A program made the position numbers and the translations under genes. Source: an uncultured Candidatus Saccharibacteria bacterium (lineage in GTDB: Bacteria > Patescibacteriota > Minisyncoccia > Phycocordibacterales > GWA1-40-21). From it: a stretch of DNA of 64,000 nucleotides. Of this stretch, positions 6,475-63,876 are shown in pieces. The stretch is from the NCBI GenBank assembly GCA_964513515.1, contig CAZEMP010000001.1, positions 75,336-139,335 of the forward strand, written 5' to 3'. The notes below the pieces were generated by a model, which was not told the origin of the DNA, searched no databases, and was given only the letters and a program-made list of their open reading frames with translations. Each line of letters opens with the position of its first letter. The stretch's first letter is position 1.

Positions 6475-6963
6475 ATGACAAGAAAAATATTACTGGCAGG
6501 GGGCTGTTTTTGGGGATTGCAAGATCTGATAAGAAAACAACCCGGTGTTACAAAAACACAAGTCGGCTATACAGGGGGAAACGTCAAAAACCCAACATAT
6601 GAGAATCATGATGGCCATGCTGAAGCTGTAGAGATTGAATATGATACAGATAAAACATCATACAAGGTGCTTTTAGATTTCTTTTTCCAAATACATAATC
6701 CTACAACACTCAATCAGCAAGGTAATGATGTGGGAACGTCCTATAGATCTGCTATTTTTTATGGAAATGAAGAGGAGAAAAAAGAGGCTTTAAATTTTAT
6801 TGAAATTGTAAATAAATCTGGTAGATGGAAAGATCCTGTAGTTACCACATTAGAATCTTTAGATAAATTTTACCCTGCTGAAAATTATCATCAAGATTAT
6901 TTGATCAAAAATCCTGGTGGATATACTTGTCATGCTATATGGTTTGATAGTTATTTAAAATAA
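6475..6963 (+). CDS. msrA: peptide methionine-S-sulfoxide reductase MsrA
   Basis: The GGCFWG active-site motif is present and the length is typical. Confidence 0.85.
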
Positions 6964-7037
6964 TGCGCCCTGTAAAGAATTTTTTAGAAATTACGTCTTT
7001 GCGAGCCTAACAAAGCAATCCAGGTTAAATAAATATT

Positions 7038-7460
7038 ATGTTAAATTTTAAACAAAGTGAAAATTCACACGGGGCAAGAAAAACATCTATAATCTTTCTT
7101 GTTTCTTTTTTGCTAAATGTGGTATGGGAAAATTTACATTCATATTTATATGCAAATTATATGGGAGAAAATATTACTCAATTTATTTTAGTTAGGGCTT
7201 CCCTATTTGATGCACTATTAATAACACTTATATCACTTCCCTTTTTATATTTTAATTCGTTAAAATATAAAGTATGGATAATACTTATTCCTGCCACAAT
7301 TATTGCAGTGATTAATGAATGGTATGGATTAGGAACTGCTCGTTGGGCATATAATGAGCTTATGCCTATAATACCTATCTTAAATACAGGAATTACACCA
7401 ACAATACAACTTGGTTTGTTGGCTTACTTTTCATTTAAAATTGAAGAGTATCTGTCTTAA
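7038..7460 (+). CDS. hypothetical integral membrane protein
   Basis: 140 aa with about 4 predicted TM helices. No family assigned. Confidence 0.4.
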   Translation: MLNFKQSENSHGARKTSIIFLVSFLLNVVWENLHSYLYANYMGENITQFILVRASLFDALLITLISLPFLYFNSLKYKVWIILIPATIIAVINEWYGLGTARWAYNELMPIIPILNTGITPTIQLGLLAYFSFKIEEYLS

Positions 7461-7502
7461 TAAATTTTTACGAAGGACTGCCCTTTGTAATTCTTCTGGG
7501 GA

Positions 7503-8573
7503 TTATTCACCTTTATCGTATTTTTCTAAATAGTTTGTAAGTTGCCTGTTTACTTTTATAAAAGTAGCTCTCTTGGGAAATTCTTTAAGCTGTCTTGCAC
7601 CAATGTATGTAGCTGTACTCCTCAAAGATCCCATAAGATCTTGTATAAAATCGTGTAAATCGCCCTTGTGAGGTATAAGCGTGTATCTTCCTTCACTTGC
7701 TCTATGACTATCTTTTTTGCCATATAGCTCTATCATTGCTTTATTTGATGATGAACCAAAATATTCTTTAAACTTTTTACCGTCTTTTATAATTGTTTCT
7801 CCACCACTTTGTTCATATCCGGAAAATAAAGATCCGCACATATTAAAATCAGCACCACCACAAAATGCCTTTGCTATATCTGAAGGATATTGCTGTCCCC
7901 CATCAGCTATTATCCTTCCCACACCCTTTTCATTCGCTATACCATGTGCAGAATCTGCACATTCAATAACAGCAGAAAGCTGAGGATATCCAACCCCAGT
8001 CATTCTTCTTGTGGTACAAGCAGAACCAGGCCCAATACCTATTTTTACAATATCTGCTCCAGCTAAAATAATTTCCTCAGTAATTTCATTTGTTACTACA
8101 TTTCCAGCAATGATTATATGTTTTGGACAAAGTTTTCTTATTAATCTTATAGTTTCTAAAAATGATTGAAGATATCCATTTGGTACATCAAGACAAATAA
8201 ATGAAAATTTCTCAAGTAAACCTTTCTTTTTCATAACTTTTAATTGCTCAATGTCTTTTTCGCGCATTCCAAGGGTGTAACAAATATAATCTGGATTATT
8301 GAAAGTCTTAAAAAAATCTTGATATTCTTTTACAGTATAATATTTATGAAAAGTAGTAATCATTTTATACTTTGAAAGTATTCTTGCCATCTCATATGTG
8401 CCACATGTTGCCATATTGGCTGTCATTATGGGCAAGCCTGTCCATTTTTTAGGTGAATTATAAAAAGTAAGTGTTCTTTCAAGTAAAACGTCTTTTCTAG
8501 ATTCTAGTGTACTTCTCTTTGGTCTTAGTAATACATCCTGATAATCCAATTTCACATCATCTATTATTCTCAT
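7503..8573 (-). CDS. guaC: GMP reductase (IMPDH/GMPR family)
   Basis: Collinear with E. coli GuaC ([26 protein letters not shown]... and GIGPGSVCTTR). It has no CBS insertion. Confidence 0.75.
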
Positions 8574-33146: not shown

Positions 33147-33584
33147 TTAAAGTGCTCCGGCTTGTCCGAGCTTTTCTGCGAGTTGATCAGCTTTTTTCTC
33201 TACGACTTCCTTATAATCTCTCCAAGCAGATTCATTCCATATTTCTATTCTGTCTTGAACTCCAACTACCGCTATTTTATTTTTTAAAGAAGCTCTTGAA
33301 ACAAGAAATTCTGGTAAAAGTATTCTCCCGATGGTATCTACTTCTACCTCTGTAGCTGAACCAAACATATATCTGTTAAAACTTCTGTTATCTGCTTGAA
33401 GCATTGAGAAATCTGAAAGTTTTTCTGATATTTTTTTCCACTGAGCTACTGTAAAAATCCAAAGACAATTATCAAGACCAGCTGTCACAATGATTTTTTT
33501 GCCGACTTCTTTACGGAATTTAACAGGGAGAGATACTCTCTTTTTTTCATCTAATGTATGTATGTATTCTCCAATAAGCATAAT
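33147..33584 (-). CDS. mraZ: transcriptional regulator MraZ
   Basis: MLIGEYIHTLDEKKRVSLPVKFR matches the MraZ N-terminus (start taken at the internal ATG). Two MraZ repeats are present. Confidence 0.85.
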   Translation of the reverse strand: MMLIGEYIHTLDEKKRVSLPVKFRKEVGKKIIVTAGLDNCLWIFTVAQWKKISEKLSDFSMLQADNRSFNRYMFGSATEVEVDTIGRILLPEFLVSRASLKNKIAVVGVQDRIEIWNESAWRDYKEVVEKKADQLAEKLGQAGAL

Positions 33585-33609
33585 AGTTTTTGGTTGGGAA
33601 AAATTTAAT

Positions 33610-33655
33610 CCCACTTATTCCCACCTACTCTATATTTTATAACACTTTATCCCAC
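33610..33655 (-). promoter_or_regulatory. putative MraZ operator (three GTGGG boxes)
   Basis: On the minus strand GTGGG occurs at 33610-14, 33620-24 (10-bp spacing) and 33651-55, immediately upstream of mraZ. Confidence 0.35.
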
Positions 33656-33802
33656 AATACAATTTTAAAACCCACTTTCTTTTTATAGAAAGTGGGTTAA
33701 TTTCATGGCTAAAAATATAGGTTTTTCAACCGATAAATAAGTTATCAACATTTTCAAAAATTTTATTTAAAATATTGATTATTTTTAATAATATATTACT
33801 AT

Positions 33803-34468
33803 TTAAATATTCGTCTTAGGTTTTTTTCTAACAAAAAAGAATTTATTAAACATATAATAATTATAACGTCCTTTTACTCTTGCATTTCCTATATTTAATG
33901 AATCAAACCCATCAGAATATCTTTCAGGTCTTCCACTATAATAAAAAATAAACTGAGTTATACCATAATATTCAACCTTTTGATCTATGGGTTTCATAGC
34001 AACATTTATCCAATCTGGGTTATCATTATATTTCCCATTAATATATTGTGGGACAGTAAAAGGAATTGATATCGCCAAGCTAGCAGGAACAAAATCTAAT
34101 CCATTTTCTTTTGCTTTTTTTACAATATCCTTATAAGGATGAATTTCTTTGTCATTAAATAAATCTTCAGTATTAACAATTACTACATCGTAATAACTCT
34201 CCAACTTCTCACTCCAATTTACCTTATCCATCATTCTCGAAAGTTCAGAGAGCCTGTCGTATCTTGCTACCTTATATCCTTTTTCTGTGAGCTTATCGAG
34301 AGCTGTCATAGTAGAGATTATTTCTGGATCAGGAATAACTTGTTTCCAAGTTGGAAACTTTTTTTCTTGTTTTATAGATTCAGGAGTCTTTATTGAAGCT
34401 GAAAGTTTAATTCCCTCATCTGAAAATTCTGGTTTACTATATTTTTCTTTTCCAAATGGCCATTCCAT
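33803..34468 (-). CDS. MEWPFG-family paralog 1 (uncharacterised)
   Basis: 221 aa. Shares the N-terminus MEWPFGKE, the PDPEI(I/N)S block, D.H.Y.EI...GL.L.P, and a C-terminal FFFVRK with the next two ORFs. Confidence 0.5.
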   Translation of the reverse strand: MEWPFGKEKYSKPEFSDEGIKLSASIKTPESIKQEKKFPTWKQVIPDPEIISTMTALDKLTEKGYKVARYDRLSELSRMMDKVNWSEKLESYYDVVIVNTEDLFNDKEIHPYKDIVKKAKENGLDFVPASLAISIPFTVPQYINGKYNDNPDWINVAMKPIDQKVEYYGITQFIFYYSGRPERYSDGFDSLNIGNARVKGRYNYYMFNKFFFVRKKPKTNI

Positions 34469-34481
34469 ATATATTTATTAA

Positions 34482-35063
34482 TTATTTACGAACAAATAAA
34501 AATTCTTCATCAGGATTGAATTTAAAATTATTAGAACCACCTATCTGACCTAACCATAAATTATTATCAAAAGTATTTAATCCACAAGTAAATAGTAAAG
34601 TTGAGTATTTAGTCTCTATTGCCTTAGTGGCAATCACTCTATCTTTGTCTTTTTTATAATTTAAGCAAATTTCAGTCACTAAGGTGGGTGGAACAAGTTC
34701 AAGTCCGTAATCTTCTTTCGCCTTTGTTATAATTTCCCAGTAAGTGTGAAATTTGTCATCGTCAAAAAGTTCGTTTACAGAAATAGAAACGATTTTATAT
34801 GGATTTTTAGGTTTTTCTTTCCAATTTAATTCTTGTAACATTTCCTTGGCAGAATCACTTATTTTATATCCCACAGAAACTAGTTTGTTGTTTGCTATTA
34901 AGATTGAATTAATTTCTGGATCAGGAGTAATATCTTTCTTGAATAGAAATTCTGGTTTCCTTTTACTTTTTATGTTTATATTTTCTATTGGAGCAGAAAA
35001 TTGAATTCCGTTATCTAGGAATTTTTCCTTACTATATTCTTCTTTTCCAAAAGGCCATTCCAT
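34482..35063 (-). CDS. MEWPFG-family paralog 2 (uncharacterised)
   Basis: 193 aa with the same conserved blocks. 13-nt spacing to its neighbours. Confidence 0.5.
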   Translation of the reverse strand: MEWPFGKEEYSKEKFLDNGIQFSAPIENINIKSKRKPEFLFKKDITPDPEINSILIANNKLVSVGYKISDSAKEMLQELNWKEKPKNPYKIVSISVNELFDDDKFHTYWEIITKAKEDYGLELVPPTLVTEICLNYKKDKDRVIATKAIETKYSTLLFTCGLNTFDNNLWLGQIGGSNNFKFNPDEEFLFVRK

Positions 35064-35076
35064 ATATGTTTATTTT

Positions 35077-35640
35077 TTATTTACGAATAAAAAAGAACTG
35101 GTGCCAAGAACGCCAATAGTGATCATCTAGACCAGAGTCAACACCCAGAAAAGACTCACCGCCAGATTCATTACAAAAGAATAGTCTTTGATCATCATAC
35201 GCATCACTTATGGGTTCAATTGCGATAACCACTAAACCCACATCCTTAGAATAATTTTTTCTGATACTTGGAACAAGTTTTGCTGGTATTAGTTTTAATC
35301 CTTGTTTGTCTGCCTCTTCTTTTATTTCTTTATATGTATGGTCGGATTTATCTTTGAATAGTTGCTTGACCATTATTAGAGCCATGTCATATCTTTCTTT
35401 TAGTTCTTTTTTATAGTTTATATCAAATAGAAACGGTTTAGCATAATAACTTATTACGTGACCATCTTTTTCAAGTTTTTGTATAGCTGTTTCTGCAGAA
35501 ATTATTTCAGGATCTGGAGTTATTTCTTTCCATATAGGAGAATTTTCAGGTTTTTTAATAGATTCAAATGGTCTCATTTGAGTGTCACCAGTTGCTATTT
35601 CTAGTTTATTAATTTTTTCTTCTCCAAATGGCCATTCCAT
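35077..35640 (-). CDS. MEWPFG-family paralog 3 (uncharacterised)
   Basis: 187 aa with the same conserved blocks. Confidence 0.5.
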   Translation of the reverse strand: MEWPFGEEKINKLEIATGDTQMRPFESIKKPENSPIWKEITPDPEIISAETAIQKLEKDGHVISYYAKPFLFDINYKKELKERYDMALIMVKQLFKDKSDHTYKEIKEEADKQGLKLIPAKLVPSIRKNYSKDVGLVVIAIEPISDAYDDQRLFFCNESGGESFLGVDSGLDDHYWRSWHQFFFIRK

Positions 35641-35706
35641 ATAAATATATTTTTAGTATTAAATTTTCTGTGTTTTCCTTATACTTATACGAAATACTTA
35701 TACTAT

Positions 35707-37164
35707 TTATCCCTTCGGTCTCATGAAAGGGAAAATCTGACATTCACGAGCTGGCTTGTCAGAAAGAAAGCTGAAAAATCTTTCAGAGAGTCCAAAGCCA
35801 CAGGTTGGTGGCATTCCGTACTCAAGTGCTTCAACAAAGTCATTGTCCATCATTTGCGCCTCATCATCCCCTTCATCTCTCAACTTTGCTTGGTCTGTAA
35901 ATCTTCCGAGTTGATCTATTGGATCGTTTAATTCGCTAAAACCTTTACCCATTTCTGATCCGGCAAGAATCACCTGGAATCTTTCAACAAGATTTTTATT
36001 TTTATCCATTCTTTTTGCCAATGGTTCCATCATCACTGGAACATTTACCAAAAATCCTGGTCCGGCTATTTGGCGTCTACAATATTTCCACAATGAATCA
36101 ATTGCTCTATTTAAATTGAACCCTTTTCTGTCATATTCTATTTTTAAAGTTTGTAACTTCTTTTCTATCTCTGTTAATTTAGCGATAGTTACATCTATTC
36201 CTGTCTTTTCTTTTATCAAACTGACATAGTCGTATTTTTCCCATTTACCACCAAGATCTACTTCAAAATCTTTTATTTTAAATTTGAGTGTTCCAAAAGT
36301 TTTCTCTGCAATATGTTTATACATTTCTTCTACAAGCTTCATGCCGTCATTATAATCTGCATAAGCCCAATAGAACTCCATTTGAGCGTAATCCTGGAGA
36401 TGTTCAGCATCAGCCCCTTCGTTTCTAAAGATTCTTCCGATTTCGTAGACTTTTGGAAAGCCGGCAACCATAAGGCGTTTGAGCCAAAGCTCCGGAGATA
36501 TTCTCAAATAAACGTCCGTGTCATAAGCATTGTAATGAGTAACGAAAGGTCGAGCTTCTGCACCTCCGGCTGTATTTTCCAATACCGGTGTATCTACTTC
36601 CATAAAACCCCTCTCTTCAAGAAATTGTCTCATTGAGCTAAAAAACTTTGCTCTTTTTTCTATTGTATCTTTAACATCTTTGTTAAAAATAATATCCAAA
36701 TATCTTTTTCTTAGTCTGTCTTCTTCATCCTGTATACCATGCCATTTTTCAGGTAATGGTCTTAAGCTTTTTGTAAGAATTTTCCAACCAACAACTTTTA
36801 GGGTCTTTTCTCCTCTTTTTGTTATGAAAAGTGAACCGTTTATTTCTATAAAATCCCCAATATCAATTGTGTTTTGAAAAAGATCAAATAACTTTTCATC
36901 CATTTCATCTTTTTTTAGTAAGCCCTGAAATACTCCTGTACCATCATTTATATTTATAAATATCAAACCACCCTGGCCTCTTATGGCCATTATTCTGCCA
37001 ACAAGATATACAGACTCTTTCTTAGAAATCTTTTCAAAATCAGCTATAACTTCTGAAAGATAATAGTCTCTTCTTGAGGTTGCTGGAAATGAATCCATAC
37101 CAGCCTTTTCAAGGAGTTTTAATTTTTCTATTCTAATATTTTTTAATTCCTCAAAAGAAGACAT
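35707..37164 (-). CDS. lysS: lysyl-tRNA synthetase (class II)
   Basis: N-terminal OB anticodon-binding domain and class II motifs 1-3 (GAGF-like and GFGLSERF). Confidence 0.9.
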   Translation of the reverse strand: MSSFEELKNIRIEKLKLLEKAGMDSFPATSRRDYYLSEVIADFEKISKKESVYLVGRIMAIRGQGGLIFININDGTGVFQGLLKKDEMDEKLFDLFQNTIDIGDFIEINGSLFITKRGEKTLKVVGWKILTKSLRPLPEKWHGIQDEEDRLRKRYLDIIFNKDVKDTIEKRAKFFSSMRQFLEERGFMEVDTPVLENTAGGAEARPFVTHYNAYDTDVYLRISPELWLKRLMVAGFPKVYEIGRIFRNEGADAEHLQDYAQMEFYWAYADYNDGMKLVEEMYKHIAEKTFGTLKFKIKDFEVDLGGKWEKYDYVSLIKEKTGIDVTIAKLTEIEKKLQTLKIEYDRKGFNLNRAIDSLWKYCRRQIAGPGFLVNVPVMMEPLAKRMDKNKNLVERFQVILAGSEMGKGFSELNDPIDQLGRFTDQAKLRDEGDDEAQMMDNDFVEALEYGMPPTCGFGLSERFFSFLSDKPARECQIFPFMRPKG

Positions 37165-63236: not shown

Positions 63237-63373
63237 CCCCCACACCTATCTTGTTATCGTTGCATTATGTTTTTAATATTAATCAATATTAATCTTTGTT
63301 TATTAAAAAAACTTACCTTAGTTATAAATCTTTATTGGCAACAAAAACACAAAAACGAGATAGGTGTGGGGGA
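63237..63373. repeat. 137-nt palindromic unit (CCCCACACCTAT...AT-rich core...AGATAGGTGTGGGG), copy downstream of rnpB
   Basis: The arms are CCCCCACACCTATCTTGTTATCGTTGC and GCAACAAAAACAC...GAGATAGGTGTGGGGG. The pattern repeats at 63512-63647, and a partial motif lies at 63928-63940. Confidence 0.55.
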
Positions 63374-63379
63374 AAAGAA

Positions 63380-63876
63380 AAGGGGGCACCTTTCGGTACT
63401 CCCTTTCCATAACCTTTATACCTATAAGCCGAATTCTGTTTGTTGTATTACTACAACAAGATAATCATCTGTCTGGGCCAAACATTACTGTTTAGCTCAA
63501 GCGGCGCTTCCCCACACCTATTCTGTTATCATTGCTATCGTGTTTTAAGATACTAGACGATATTAACTTTTATTTACTAAGTAGACTTAATATCATTTTA
63601 CAAGTCTCGCTTAGCAACAAAAACACAATAATAGAATAGGTGTGGGGACTCGGCCTTGCACCAAGGTAAGGAATTTTGCCGTTGCACCCTTATGTTGCCA
63701 TAAGGACTATCCACTAGGGATATCTCCATTCTTTCGTCTGGAGCCGTTTCTGTTCGCACCTCTCATATTGCTATGGACGGGCGTTACCCGCTACCCTTCT
63801 CCTCAACTTTAACATTGAGGTGATGTTCGGACTTTCCTCCCCAACAAAGTTGGAGCAATTATCCAATATAAAGGCA
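63380..63876 (-). ncRNA. rnpB: RNase P RNA (bacterial type A-like) containing a 136-nt palindromic insertion
   Basis: Minus-strand motifs GGAGGAAAGTCCGAAC (P4/CR-I), GGGTAGCGGGTAACGCCCGTCC, GTGCGAACAGAAACGGCTCC, GCCGCTTGAGC and ACAGAATTCGGCTTATAGG (CR-IV). P1 pairs CCTTTATA with TATAAAGG. A terminator hairpin lies at 63377-63410. Confidence 0.65.
63512..63647. repeat. 136-nt palindromic unit embedded in the P15-P17 region of rnpB
   Basis: CCCCACACCTATTCTGTTATCATTGC...GCAACAAAAACACAATAATAGAATAGGTGTGGGGA. The conserved RNase P segment GCCGCTTGAGC follows directly. Confidence 0.55.

Follow-up and report, generated by a model that had tools for sequence, protein, structure and literature searches.

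A 64,000-nucleotide stretch (hereafter, the window) of a contig from an uncultured Candidatus Saccharibacteria bacterium (GenBank assembly GCA_964513515.1, contig CAZEMP010000001.1, positions 75,336 to 139,335) carries, between lysS and mraZ, three tandem genes for small, strongly diverged proteins that are homologous to the variable proteins of diversity-generating retroelements (DGRs) in the Patescibacteria. We consider it likely that this trio comprises three locally DGR-less paralogs of a Patescibacteria DGR variable-protein family, probably lectin-like binders with fixed specificities, of which the first, paralog 1, carries a footprint of past or remote retrohoming. All three open reading frames (ORFs) are intact, begin with ATG and lie on the minus strand, encoding proteins of 187 aa (paralog 1, P0001 or p187; 35077-35640), 193 aa (paralog 2, P0002 or p193; 34482-35063) and 221 aa (paralog 3, P0003 or p221; 33803-34468) that are separated by two 13-nt spacers (35064-35076 and 34469-34481). 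A sequence-only reading of the window had described the same three consecutive paralogs, with their 13-nt gaps and common motifs, in agreement with the ORF list and our alignment, and had likened them to the immunity proteins of polymorphic toxin systems; its view of the tandem, divergent copies as a diversifying family was borne out, specifically as a DGR target family, whereas the immunity-protein assignment was not.

Searches of Pfam, NCBIfam, PADLOC and PHROGs with the trio returned nothing above noise, a hidden Markov model match to a housekeeping enzyme was looked for and none was found, and a word-indexed protein search recovered only seven close relatives, the nearest of which was 48% identical to paralog 1. 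An exhaustive profile search, by comparison, yielded 1425 representatives (E <= 1e-3), in which a domain of ~150 aa was almost always C-terminal, and a broader profile yielded 2192 clusters, every named one of which was a Patescibacteria 'hypothetical protein'. Among 150 family members scanned with Pfam, the only match was to a PcfJ-like domain at the N terminus of two long proteins, and neither the FGE-sulfatase family (PF03781) nor Lcl_C/DUF1566 (PF07603) was matched by the trio or by these 150 members. At the genome level, 75 loci were recovered from a scan of one genome per species, almost all of them in metagenome-assembled genomes of Patescibacteria, and a metagenome scan with an alignment of the close subfamily added 15 loci whose proteins were 41-48% identical to the 187-aa protein.

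The genomic context of these homologs links the family to DGRs. The gene for one homolog (P0062) lies directly upstream of genes for bAvd and an RVT_1 reverse transcriptase (RT), and a copy of its last 135 nt, 87% identical, lies 529 nt downstream, with 18 of the 18 mismatches falling at adenines of the downstream (template) copy; such adenine-only mismatches are the signature of a DGR. Across DGR-linked loci, the typical order was family gene, template repeat (TR), Avd and RT, with Avd (-) and RT (+) beginning ~0.8-1.0 kb after the target gene. The RT/Avd cassette, sought by tblastn with the RT and Avd of locus L007 as queries, was present at 25 of the 57 decidable loci of the broad family and at 5 of the 8 decidable loci of the close subfamily. 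Self-comparison revealed pairs of variable region (VR) and TR with almost purely adenine-directed mismatches at ~30 loci, again spanning the last ~135 nt of the gene (for example, 25/26, 16/16, 20/20 and 23/23 mismatches at adenines); within the close subfamily, the corresponding counts were 16/16 (L086), 16/16 (L087), 26/30 (L088), 19/21 (L089), 25/28 (L090) and 15/19 (L094). Translations of the templates were rich in Asn codons (AAC/AAT; for example, IRDRDGNLKLFNCN.NGS.SWLNNNNGHDDNRWNDNNRFFFVRK). A profile built solely from 29 DGR-verified targets covered all three trio proteins end to end (residues 36-187 in paralog 1), with E values of 4e-32 for p187, 8e-21 for p193 and 8e-15 for p221. DGR clade 2 is known to be restricted to Patescibacteria (Roux et al. 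2021, PMC8144416), and its targets have no recognisable transmembrane or other domains, their VR domains being suspected new variants of C-type lectins (PMC8144416).

The linked genes also share sequence features at their 3' ends. All 31 linked target genes end in ...CGCAAGTA(A/G), that is, in CGCAAGTAR at the stop codon, which in the broad family is followed within the first ~60 nt by a nested hairpin (for example, GGACC...GGGTC-loop-GACCC...GGTCC) and in the close subfamily by CCTTA/CTTAT-rich sequence with no strong hairpin. The CGCAAGTA(A/G) end, together with the downstream hairpin or CCTTA-type sequence, probably acts in cis to fix the boundary of retrohoming. A Wolfebacteria DGR (L024) has two TR-like copies (6920-7045 and 7401-7526) between the target gene and Avd, of which only the second was paired with the VR in self-comparison (10/10 adenine mismatches). 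DGR linkage is not universal within the family: approximately half of its genes in species-representative genomes lack any DGR over a distance of at least 2.5 kb.

To place the trio relative to these DGR targets, we compared the region of each paralog that corresponds to the VR. In paralog 1, the last 44 codons (ISDAYDDQRLFFCNESGGESFLGVDSGLDDHYWRSWHQFFFIRK; 35080-35211, minus strand) have the canonical length, align gap-free to the TR peptides of the close subfamily and are depleted in adenine, with an A fraction of 0.22 versus 0.45 in the rest of the gene (p = 2e-6). The depletion is also seen at synonymous third positions (A at 7/23 versus 74/109; p = 0.0017), a change point in composition falls after nt 386 (shuffle p < 0.002), and the resulting A ratio, 0.49, coincides with the mean for DGR-linked VRs (range 0.24-0.73). 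The equivalent region of paralog 2 (34485-34619, minus strand) differs from the canonical region by indels and showed no significant shift in A (0.34 versus 0.43; ratio 0.80), and that of paralog 3 (33806-33988, minus strand) has insertions and showed no shift (0.39 versus 0.39; ratio ~1.0); both are of ordinary composition. Thus, only paralog 1 retains both the canonical VR length and an adenine-depleted 3' end, a pattern that is a footprint, short of proof, of retrohoming. Nucleotide comparison of the paralog 1 3' end with foreign TRs gave no useful signal, identity being 41-43% at template adenines and 50-59% at other positions.

Searches for DGR parts covered the 64-kb window, which is part of a 184,660-bp contig; short ENA and Logan contigs extend past the window ends by about 0.9 kb and 1.6 kb. 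In this window, tblastn with the L007 RT and Avd identified neither gene (best E values of 2.3 and 0.39, respectively), a repeat search and self-comparison found no VR/TR-type repeat, and a scan that tolerated any mismatch opposite adenine found no template. In addition, the trio 3' ends could not be aligned to each other without indels and therefore cannot share one template. These results bear on the possibility that paralog 1, or all three paralogs, is now an active remote target, hypermutated in trans by a DGR elsewhere in the genome. The canonical VR length of paralog 1 and its adenine depletion, at the mean of DGR-linked regions, would fit such activity, as would the adenine-poor 3' ends of many family genes without a nearby DGR (for example, ratios of 0.32 and 0.50 in L004) and the break, 40 nt before paralog 1, in a Logan contig of the same organism. 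However, no template lies in the window, and at most one of the three 3' ends could share a template with a remote DGR, given the indels needed to align them. No variants of the P0001 VR were found among 5.8 billion proteins, in which the nearest relative was 48% identical; an independent contig from the European Nucleotide Archive (ENA) was 99.98% identical over 5299 nt; and, at paralog 1, the CGCAAGTAR boundary is altered and the broad-family hairpin absent. On balance, we regard ongoing diversification in trans as rather unlikely and prefer to see in the footprint the mark of a past or remote target.

The three proteins are old paralogs that have diverged around a common scaffold. Their alignment shows shared blocks at the start (MEWPFG(K/E)E), in the interior (PDPEI.S and LF.D...H.Y..I...A...GL..P) and at the C terminus (F(F/L)F(V/I)RK), with conserved positions M1-G6 (MEWPFG), E8, L94, F95, D97, H101, Y103, I106, A110, G114, L115 and P119. 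Pairwise identities are 34-40% (those to paralog 1 were 40% and 36% in one alignment and 38% and 34% in another), confirming the strong divergence previously noted, although at values slightly above the ~30% then given; identity between paralogs is 35-44% in the scaffold and lowest, 17-24%, in the VR equivalent. The start motif ATGGARTGGCCNTTYGG has three matches in the window, all of them at the trio starts, versus 0.04 expected by chance. A conserved start region, composed of an A/T-rich leader and codons 1-14 (MEWPFG...), forms a direct-repeat family (D2) of three 53-nt copies with 87% identity (35599-35651, 35022-35074 and 34427-34479, minus strand), and DNA identity across the first 12 codons is 81-92% versus 49-55% in the scaffold. 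Gene conversion at the 5' ends is not claimed, as peptide conservation and A/T codon bias explain the 36-nt identity. Synonymous sites are saturated among the paralogs, which makes the ratio of nonsynonymous to synonymous divergence (dN/dS) unusable, and dN in the scaffold is 0.5-0.6.

This divergence pattern also bears on whether the copies, especially paralogs 2 and 3, could be decaying relics of a lost DGR locus that have no present function. There is no DGR nearby, the VR equivalents of paralogs 2 and 3 contain indels and are unremarkable in composition, and the slot occupied by the trio is dispensable in relatives, all of which decay would explain. Yet the three reading frames are intact, the family-invariant scaffold residues are kept, scaffold dN has remained this low while synonymous sites have become saturated, and the start region and 13-nt spacing are conserved, which together point to long-term purifying selection in a streamlined genome and make decay improbable as an account of the trio.

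The proteins have a two-part architecture. Paralog 1 consists of a disordered N-terminal tail of ~35 aa, starting with MEWPFGEE, followed by a domain of ~152 aa (residues 36-187); paralog 2 has the same architecture, and paralog 3 carries scaffold insertions and continues for 6 aa past the C-terminal FFFVRK. A simple hydropathy scan found no signal peptide or membrane segment in the trio (maximum KD19 <=1.04), which fits the cytoplasmic location assigned by the sequence-only reading. AlphaFold 2 (AF2) models of paralog 1 reached a predicted local distance difference test score (pLDDT) of 83 over the full length and, with 72 sequences, 94.4 for residues 36-187; the first ~30 residues are disordered, and the domain opens and closes with beta-strands (WKEI and FFFIRK). 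The six best full-length matches of the domain model in the PDB (Foldseek) were all C-type-lectin-like (E = 0.11-0.78, template-modelling score (TM) = 0.32-0.44), the lectin-like top matches including CD23, the Bd2740 C-terminal domain, MCL, CLEC4D and a snake-venom lectin. Two Foldseek searches of the PDB and a search of BFVD returned nothing significant, the top matches being weak and lectin-like, and sequence-profile searches of the PDB gave only chance matches. The trio domain may adopt a divergent C-type-lectin-like fold, with which the model is consistent, short of proof, and, if it does, that fold is an undescribed variant.

An alternative function for the domain is that of an enzyme or metal-binding module, rather than a binding scaffold, that uses the subfamily-conserved D97, H101 and Y103. 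These three residues are invariant in the ten closest proteins, but most of the wider family, including DGR-verified targets, has replaced them (L-G-F...T), the sole near-invariant polar residue across the family being R127, and no enzyme family was matched by sequence or fold. The failure of the wider family to conserve D97 and H101 led us to reject an enzymatic role for them, and we consider a catalytic or metal-binding domain very unlikely.

The position of the trio varies in content among relatives. The closest LysS relatives, 84-87% identical, belong to Candidatus Paceibacterota and Gribaldobacteria: in one of them (L106), the lysS-mraZ slot is empty, with lysS leading directly to the mraZ promoter, and in another (L105, 9473-10090), it is occupied instead by the gene for a membrane-anchored Lcl_C (DUF1566) protein of 205 aa. 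The housekeeping block is otherwise syntenic, and the trio is therefore accessory cargo carried in a slot of variable content. DUF1566 commonly serves as a target domain of DGRs, and the slot seems to collect lectin-type accessory genes.

Tandem arrays are a recurrent arrangement for this family rather than a peculiarity of the window, such that homologs are not single-copy everywhere: arrays were found in other genomes (L001, L092, L085, L037, L028 and L060). Three of these (L001, L092 and L085) have no DGR on the contig and an array-specific N-terminal module common to their copies, and in L037 two adjacent paralogs were both matched to one template (15/15 and 22/25). In L001 (17-2960) and L092 (1-4402), the module is a near-identical coiled coil of ~100 aa (~80% DNA identity); most copies join it to the lectin-like domain, but it is also fused to an HTH-like (helix-turn-helix) domain (L001, 17-571) and an LRR-like (leucine-rich repeat) domain (L092, 2969-4402). 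From these arrangements, one might speculate that the lectin-like module is used in two interchangeable modes, namely somatic-style diversification by a DGR and a germline-style repertoire of tandem, DGR-independent paralogs, with the constant N-terminal module of each array, MEWPFGxE in the window and the coiled coil in L001 and L092, docking exchangeable binding heads onto a common cellular machine; we offer this as a tentative and rather improbable generalization, under which the window would represent a mixed state, with one copy recently or remotely edited by a DGR and two fixed.

Tandem, divergent, small copies without signal peptides are also what would be expected of an immunity-protein cassette of a polymorphic toxin system, whose toxin might have been lost or might lie elsewhere, and one homolog (P0009) is encoded beside a PemK-family toxin gene. 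PemK, however, belongs to type II toxin-antitoxin systems rather than to polymorphic toxins, no toxin, Rhs, WXG or CdiA-type neighbour was found in the window or at annotated homolog loci, and no immunity or defence family was matched. The trio adjoins lysS, greA and mraZ, in agreement with the previous observation that no toxin gene is adjacent, and the consistent neighbours of its homologs are the TR, Avd and RT. We therefore consider an immunity function extremely unlikely and return to the interpretation of the trio as DGR-less members of a DGR target family.

Under this interpretation, each protein would combine a short disordered N-terminal tail, bearing the genome-specific constant peptide MEWPFGxE, with an alpha/beta lectin-like domain of ~150 residues. 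The VR of relatives is made up of the ~44 residues that precede the invariant FFFVRK strand; a neighbouring TR/Avd/RT cassette rewrites it by adenine-specific mutagenic retrohoming, presumably retuning a ligand-binding surface. With no DGR in reach of the lysS-mraZ accessory slot, the trio would instead provide three hard-wired binding specificities: paralog 1, with its retrohoming footprint, would be a past or remote DGR target, and paralogs 2 and 3 would have diverged by ordinary substitution and indels.

Several observations weigh against this interpretation. No TR, Avd or RT for the trio was found in the 64-kb window. In paralog 1, adenine depletion sets in ~15 codons ahead of the canonical VR start, within a hydrophobic strand, such that part of the shift may reflect amino-acid composition. 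The 3' end of this gene reads CGTAAATAA, versus CGCAAGTAR in all DGR-linked genes, and encodes the same peptide with differences at two synonymous sites; moreover, the next gene begins 13 nt after paralog 1, where linked genes of the broad family have the hairpin. The similarity to lectin folds is without statistical significance (Foldseek E >=0.11, TM 0.32-0.44), and, to our knowledge, no ligand or partner is known for any family member.

Around the trio, gene order is that of a housekeeping block, with greA and lysS (35707-37164) upstream on the same strand and mraZ (33147-33614), rsmH, ftsL, a penicillin-binding protein gene and murF downstream. The three copies are probably co-transcribed, and a terminator-like hairpin after paralog 3 (AACCCACTTTC-loop-GAAAGTGGGTT followed by TT; 33669-33698, minus strand), which was read directly from the sequence and fails a simple terminator scan, probably ends their transcription unit ahead of the mraZ promoter. 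Just upstream of mraZ, the window contains three (A/T)GTGGGA(T/A) boxes (33610-33660, minus strand) that are kept in the relative with an 84% identical LysS (L106, 9680-9735) and that we take to resemble the MraZ operator repeats known from other bacteria. The Logan contig mentioned above (L104, SRR8863434), an independent assembly of the same organism, stops at window position 35680, 40 nt upstream of paralog 1, a break that could be caused by the repeated start regions or by low coverage. Elsewhere in the window, a 138-nt direct repeat with 73% identity has one copy (63510-63647) within the gene for RNase P RNA (63409-63874, minus strand) and the other (63238-63371) just past the 3' end of that gene, adjoining murJ; the repeat may be a partial duplication of an RNase P segment.

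Other family members were found in more varied settings. P0042, P0043, P0046 and other members of 410-720 aa end in the domain, which in P0043 and P0046 follows a PcfJ-like domain (PF14284) and is preceded by a conserved AYIGxWNP...FPxxK(I/V)F linker. The PemK-family toxin gene (L002, 76-480) lies ~300 nt upstream of the P0009 gene, which has a gene for a GspE/PilB-type ATPase downstream on the opposite strand. Some family genes of other Patescibacteria stand beside aminoacyl-tRNA synthetase genes (leuS and alaS; L004/L005, 7001-7639 and 11522-12151; L006, 7001-7681), much like the trio next to lysS, an adjacency that may be a coincidence of gene-dense small genomes. A 251-aa homolog with a signal peptide is encoded by a cultured alphaproteobacterium, Bradyrhizobium sp. 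CSA207 (NZ_JAACFT010000001.1; L074, 5794-6549). Its gene neighbours encode a LuxR-type response regulator and a histidine kinase, and there is no DGR on the locus; this secreted protein is a possible experimental handle for the domain.

Together, these results put a concrete assignment in place of the speculative immunity cassette: the trio belongs to the main target family of Patescibacteria DGRs, which is still uncharacterised, has no Pfam model or solved structure despite thousands of members, and for which a confident AF2 model (pLDDT 94) is now available. Although the findings leave the understanding of DGRs unchanged, the locus shows that tandem paralogs built on this scaffold can also persist without a DGR, in an accessory slot of variable content, where fixed copies beside a footprint-bearing copy could serve as natural controls for questions of ligand recognition.

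Among known systems, the trio is closest to the clade 2 DGR targets of Patescibacteria (candidate phyla radiation, CPR; PMC8144416), with which it shares lineage, small size, the absence of transmembrane or known domains, a VR at the extreme C terminus and, in its homologs, the target-TR-Avd-RT layout and adenine-specific mismatches. Unlike those targets, it forms a three-gene array in a 64-kb window that contains no TR, Avd or RT, and the canonical VR length and composition have been lost from two of its copies. The lectin-fold variable proteins Mtd of Bordetella phage, TvpA of Treponema and TaqVP of Thermus (PMC2408619, PMC6328139, PMC5006420) likewise have C-terminal variable residues in a compact alpha/beta domain and, as in the family studied here, Asn-codon-rich templates (AAC/AAT), and the best model matches are C-type-lectin-like, but the trio shows no detectable sequence similarity to these proteins, none of which was a significant match in Foldseek. 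Lcl_C (DUF1566, PF07603) is represented by a protein that fills the same lysS-mraZ slot in the close relative L105, whereas the trio belongs to a different sequence family, with no PF07603 match and no membrane anchor. Finally, the trio resembles the immunity cassettes of polymorphic toxin systems as a tandem array of small, strongly diverged paralogs, but differs from them in having neither a toxin neighbour nor an immunity-family match and in belonging to a family that a retroelement diversifies, mainly within a defined C-terminal region.

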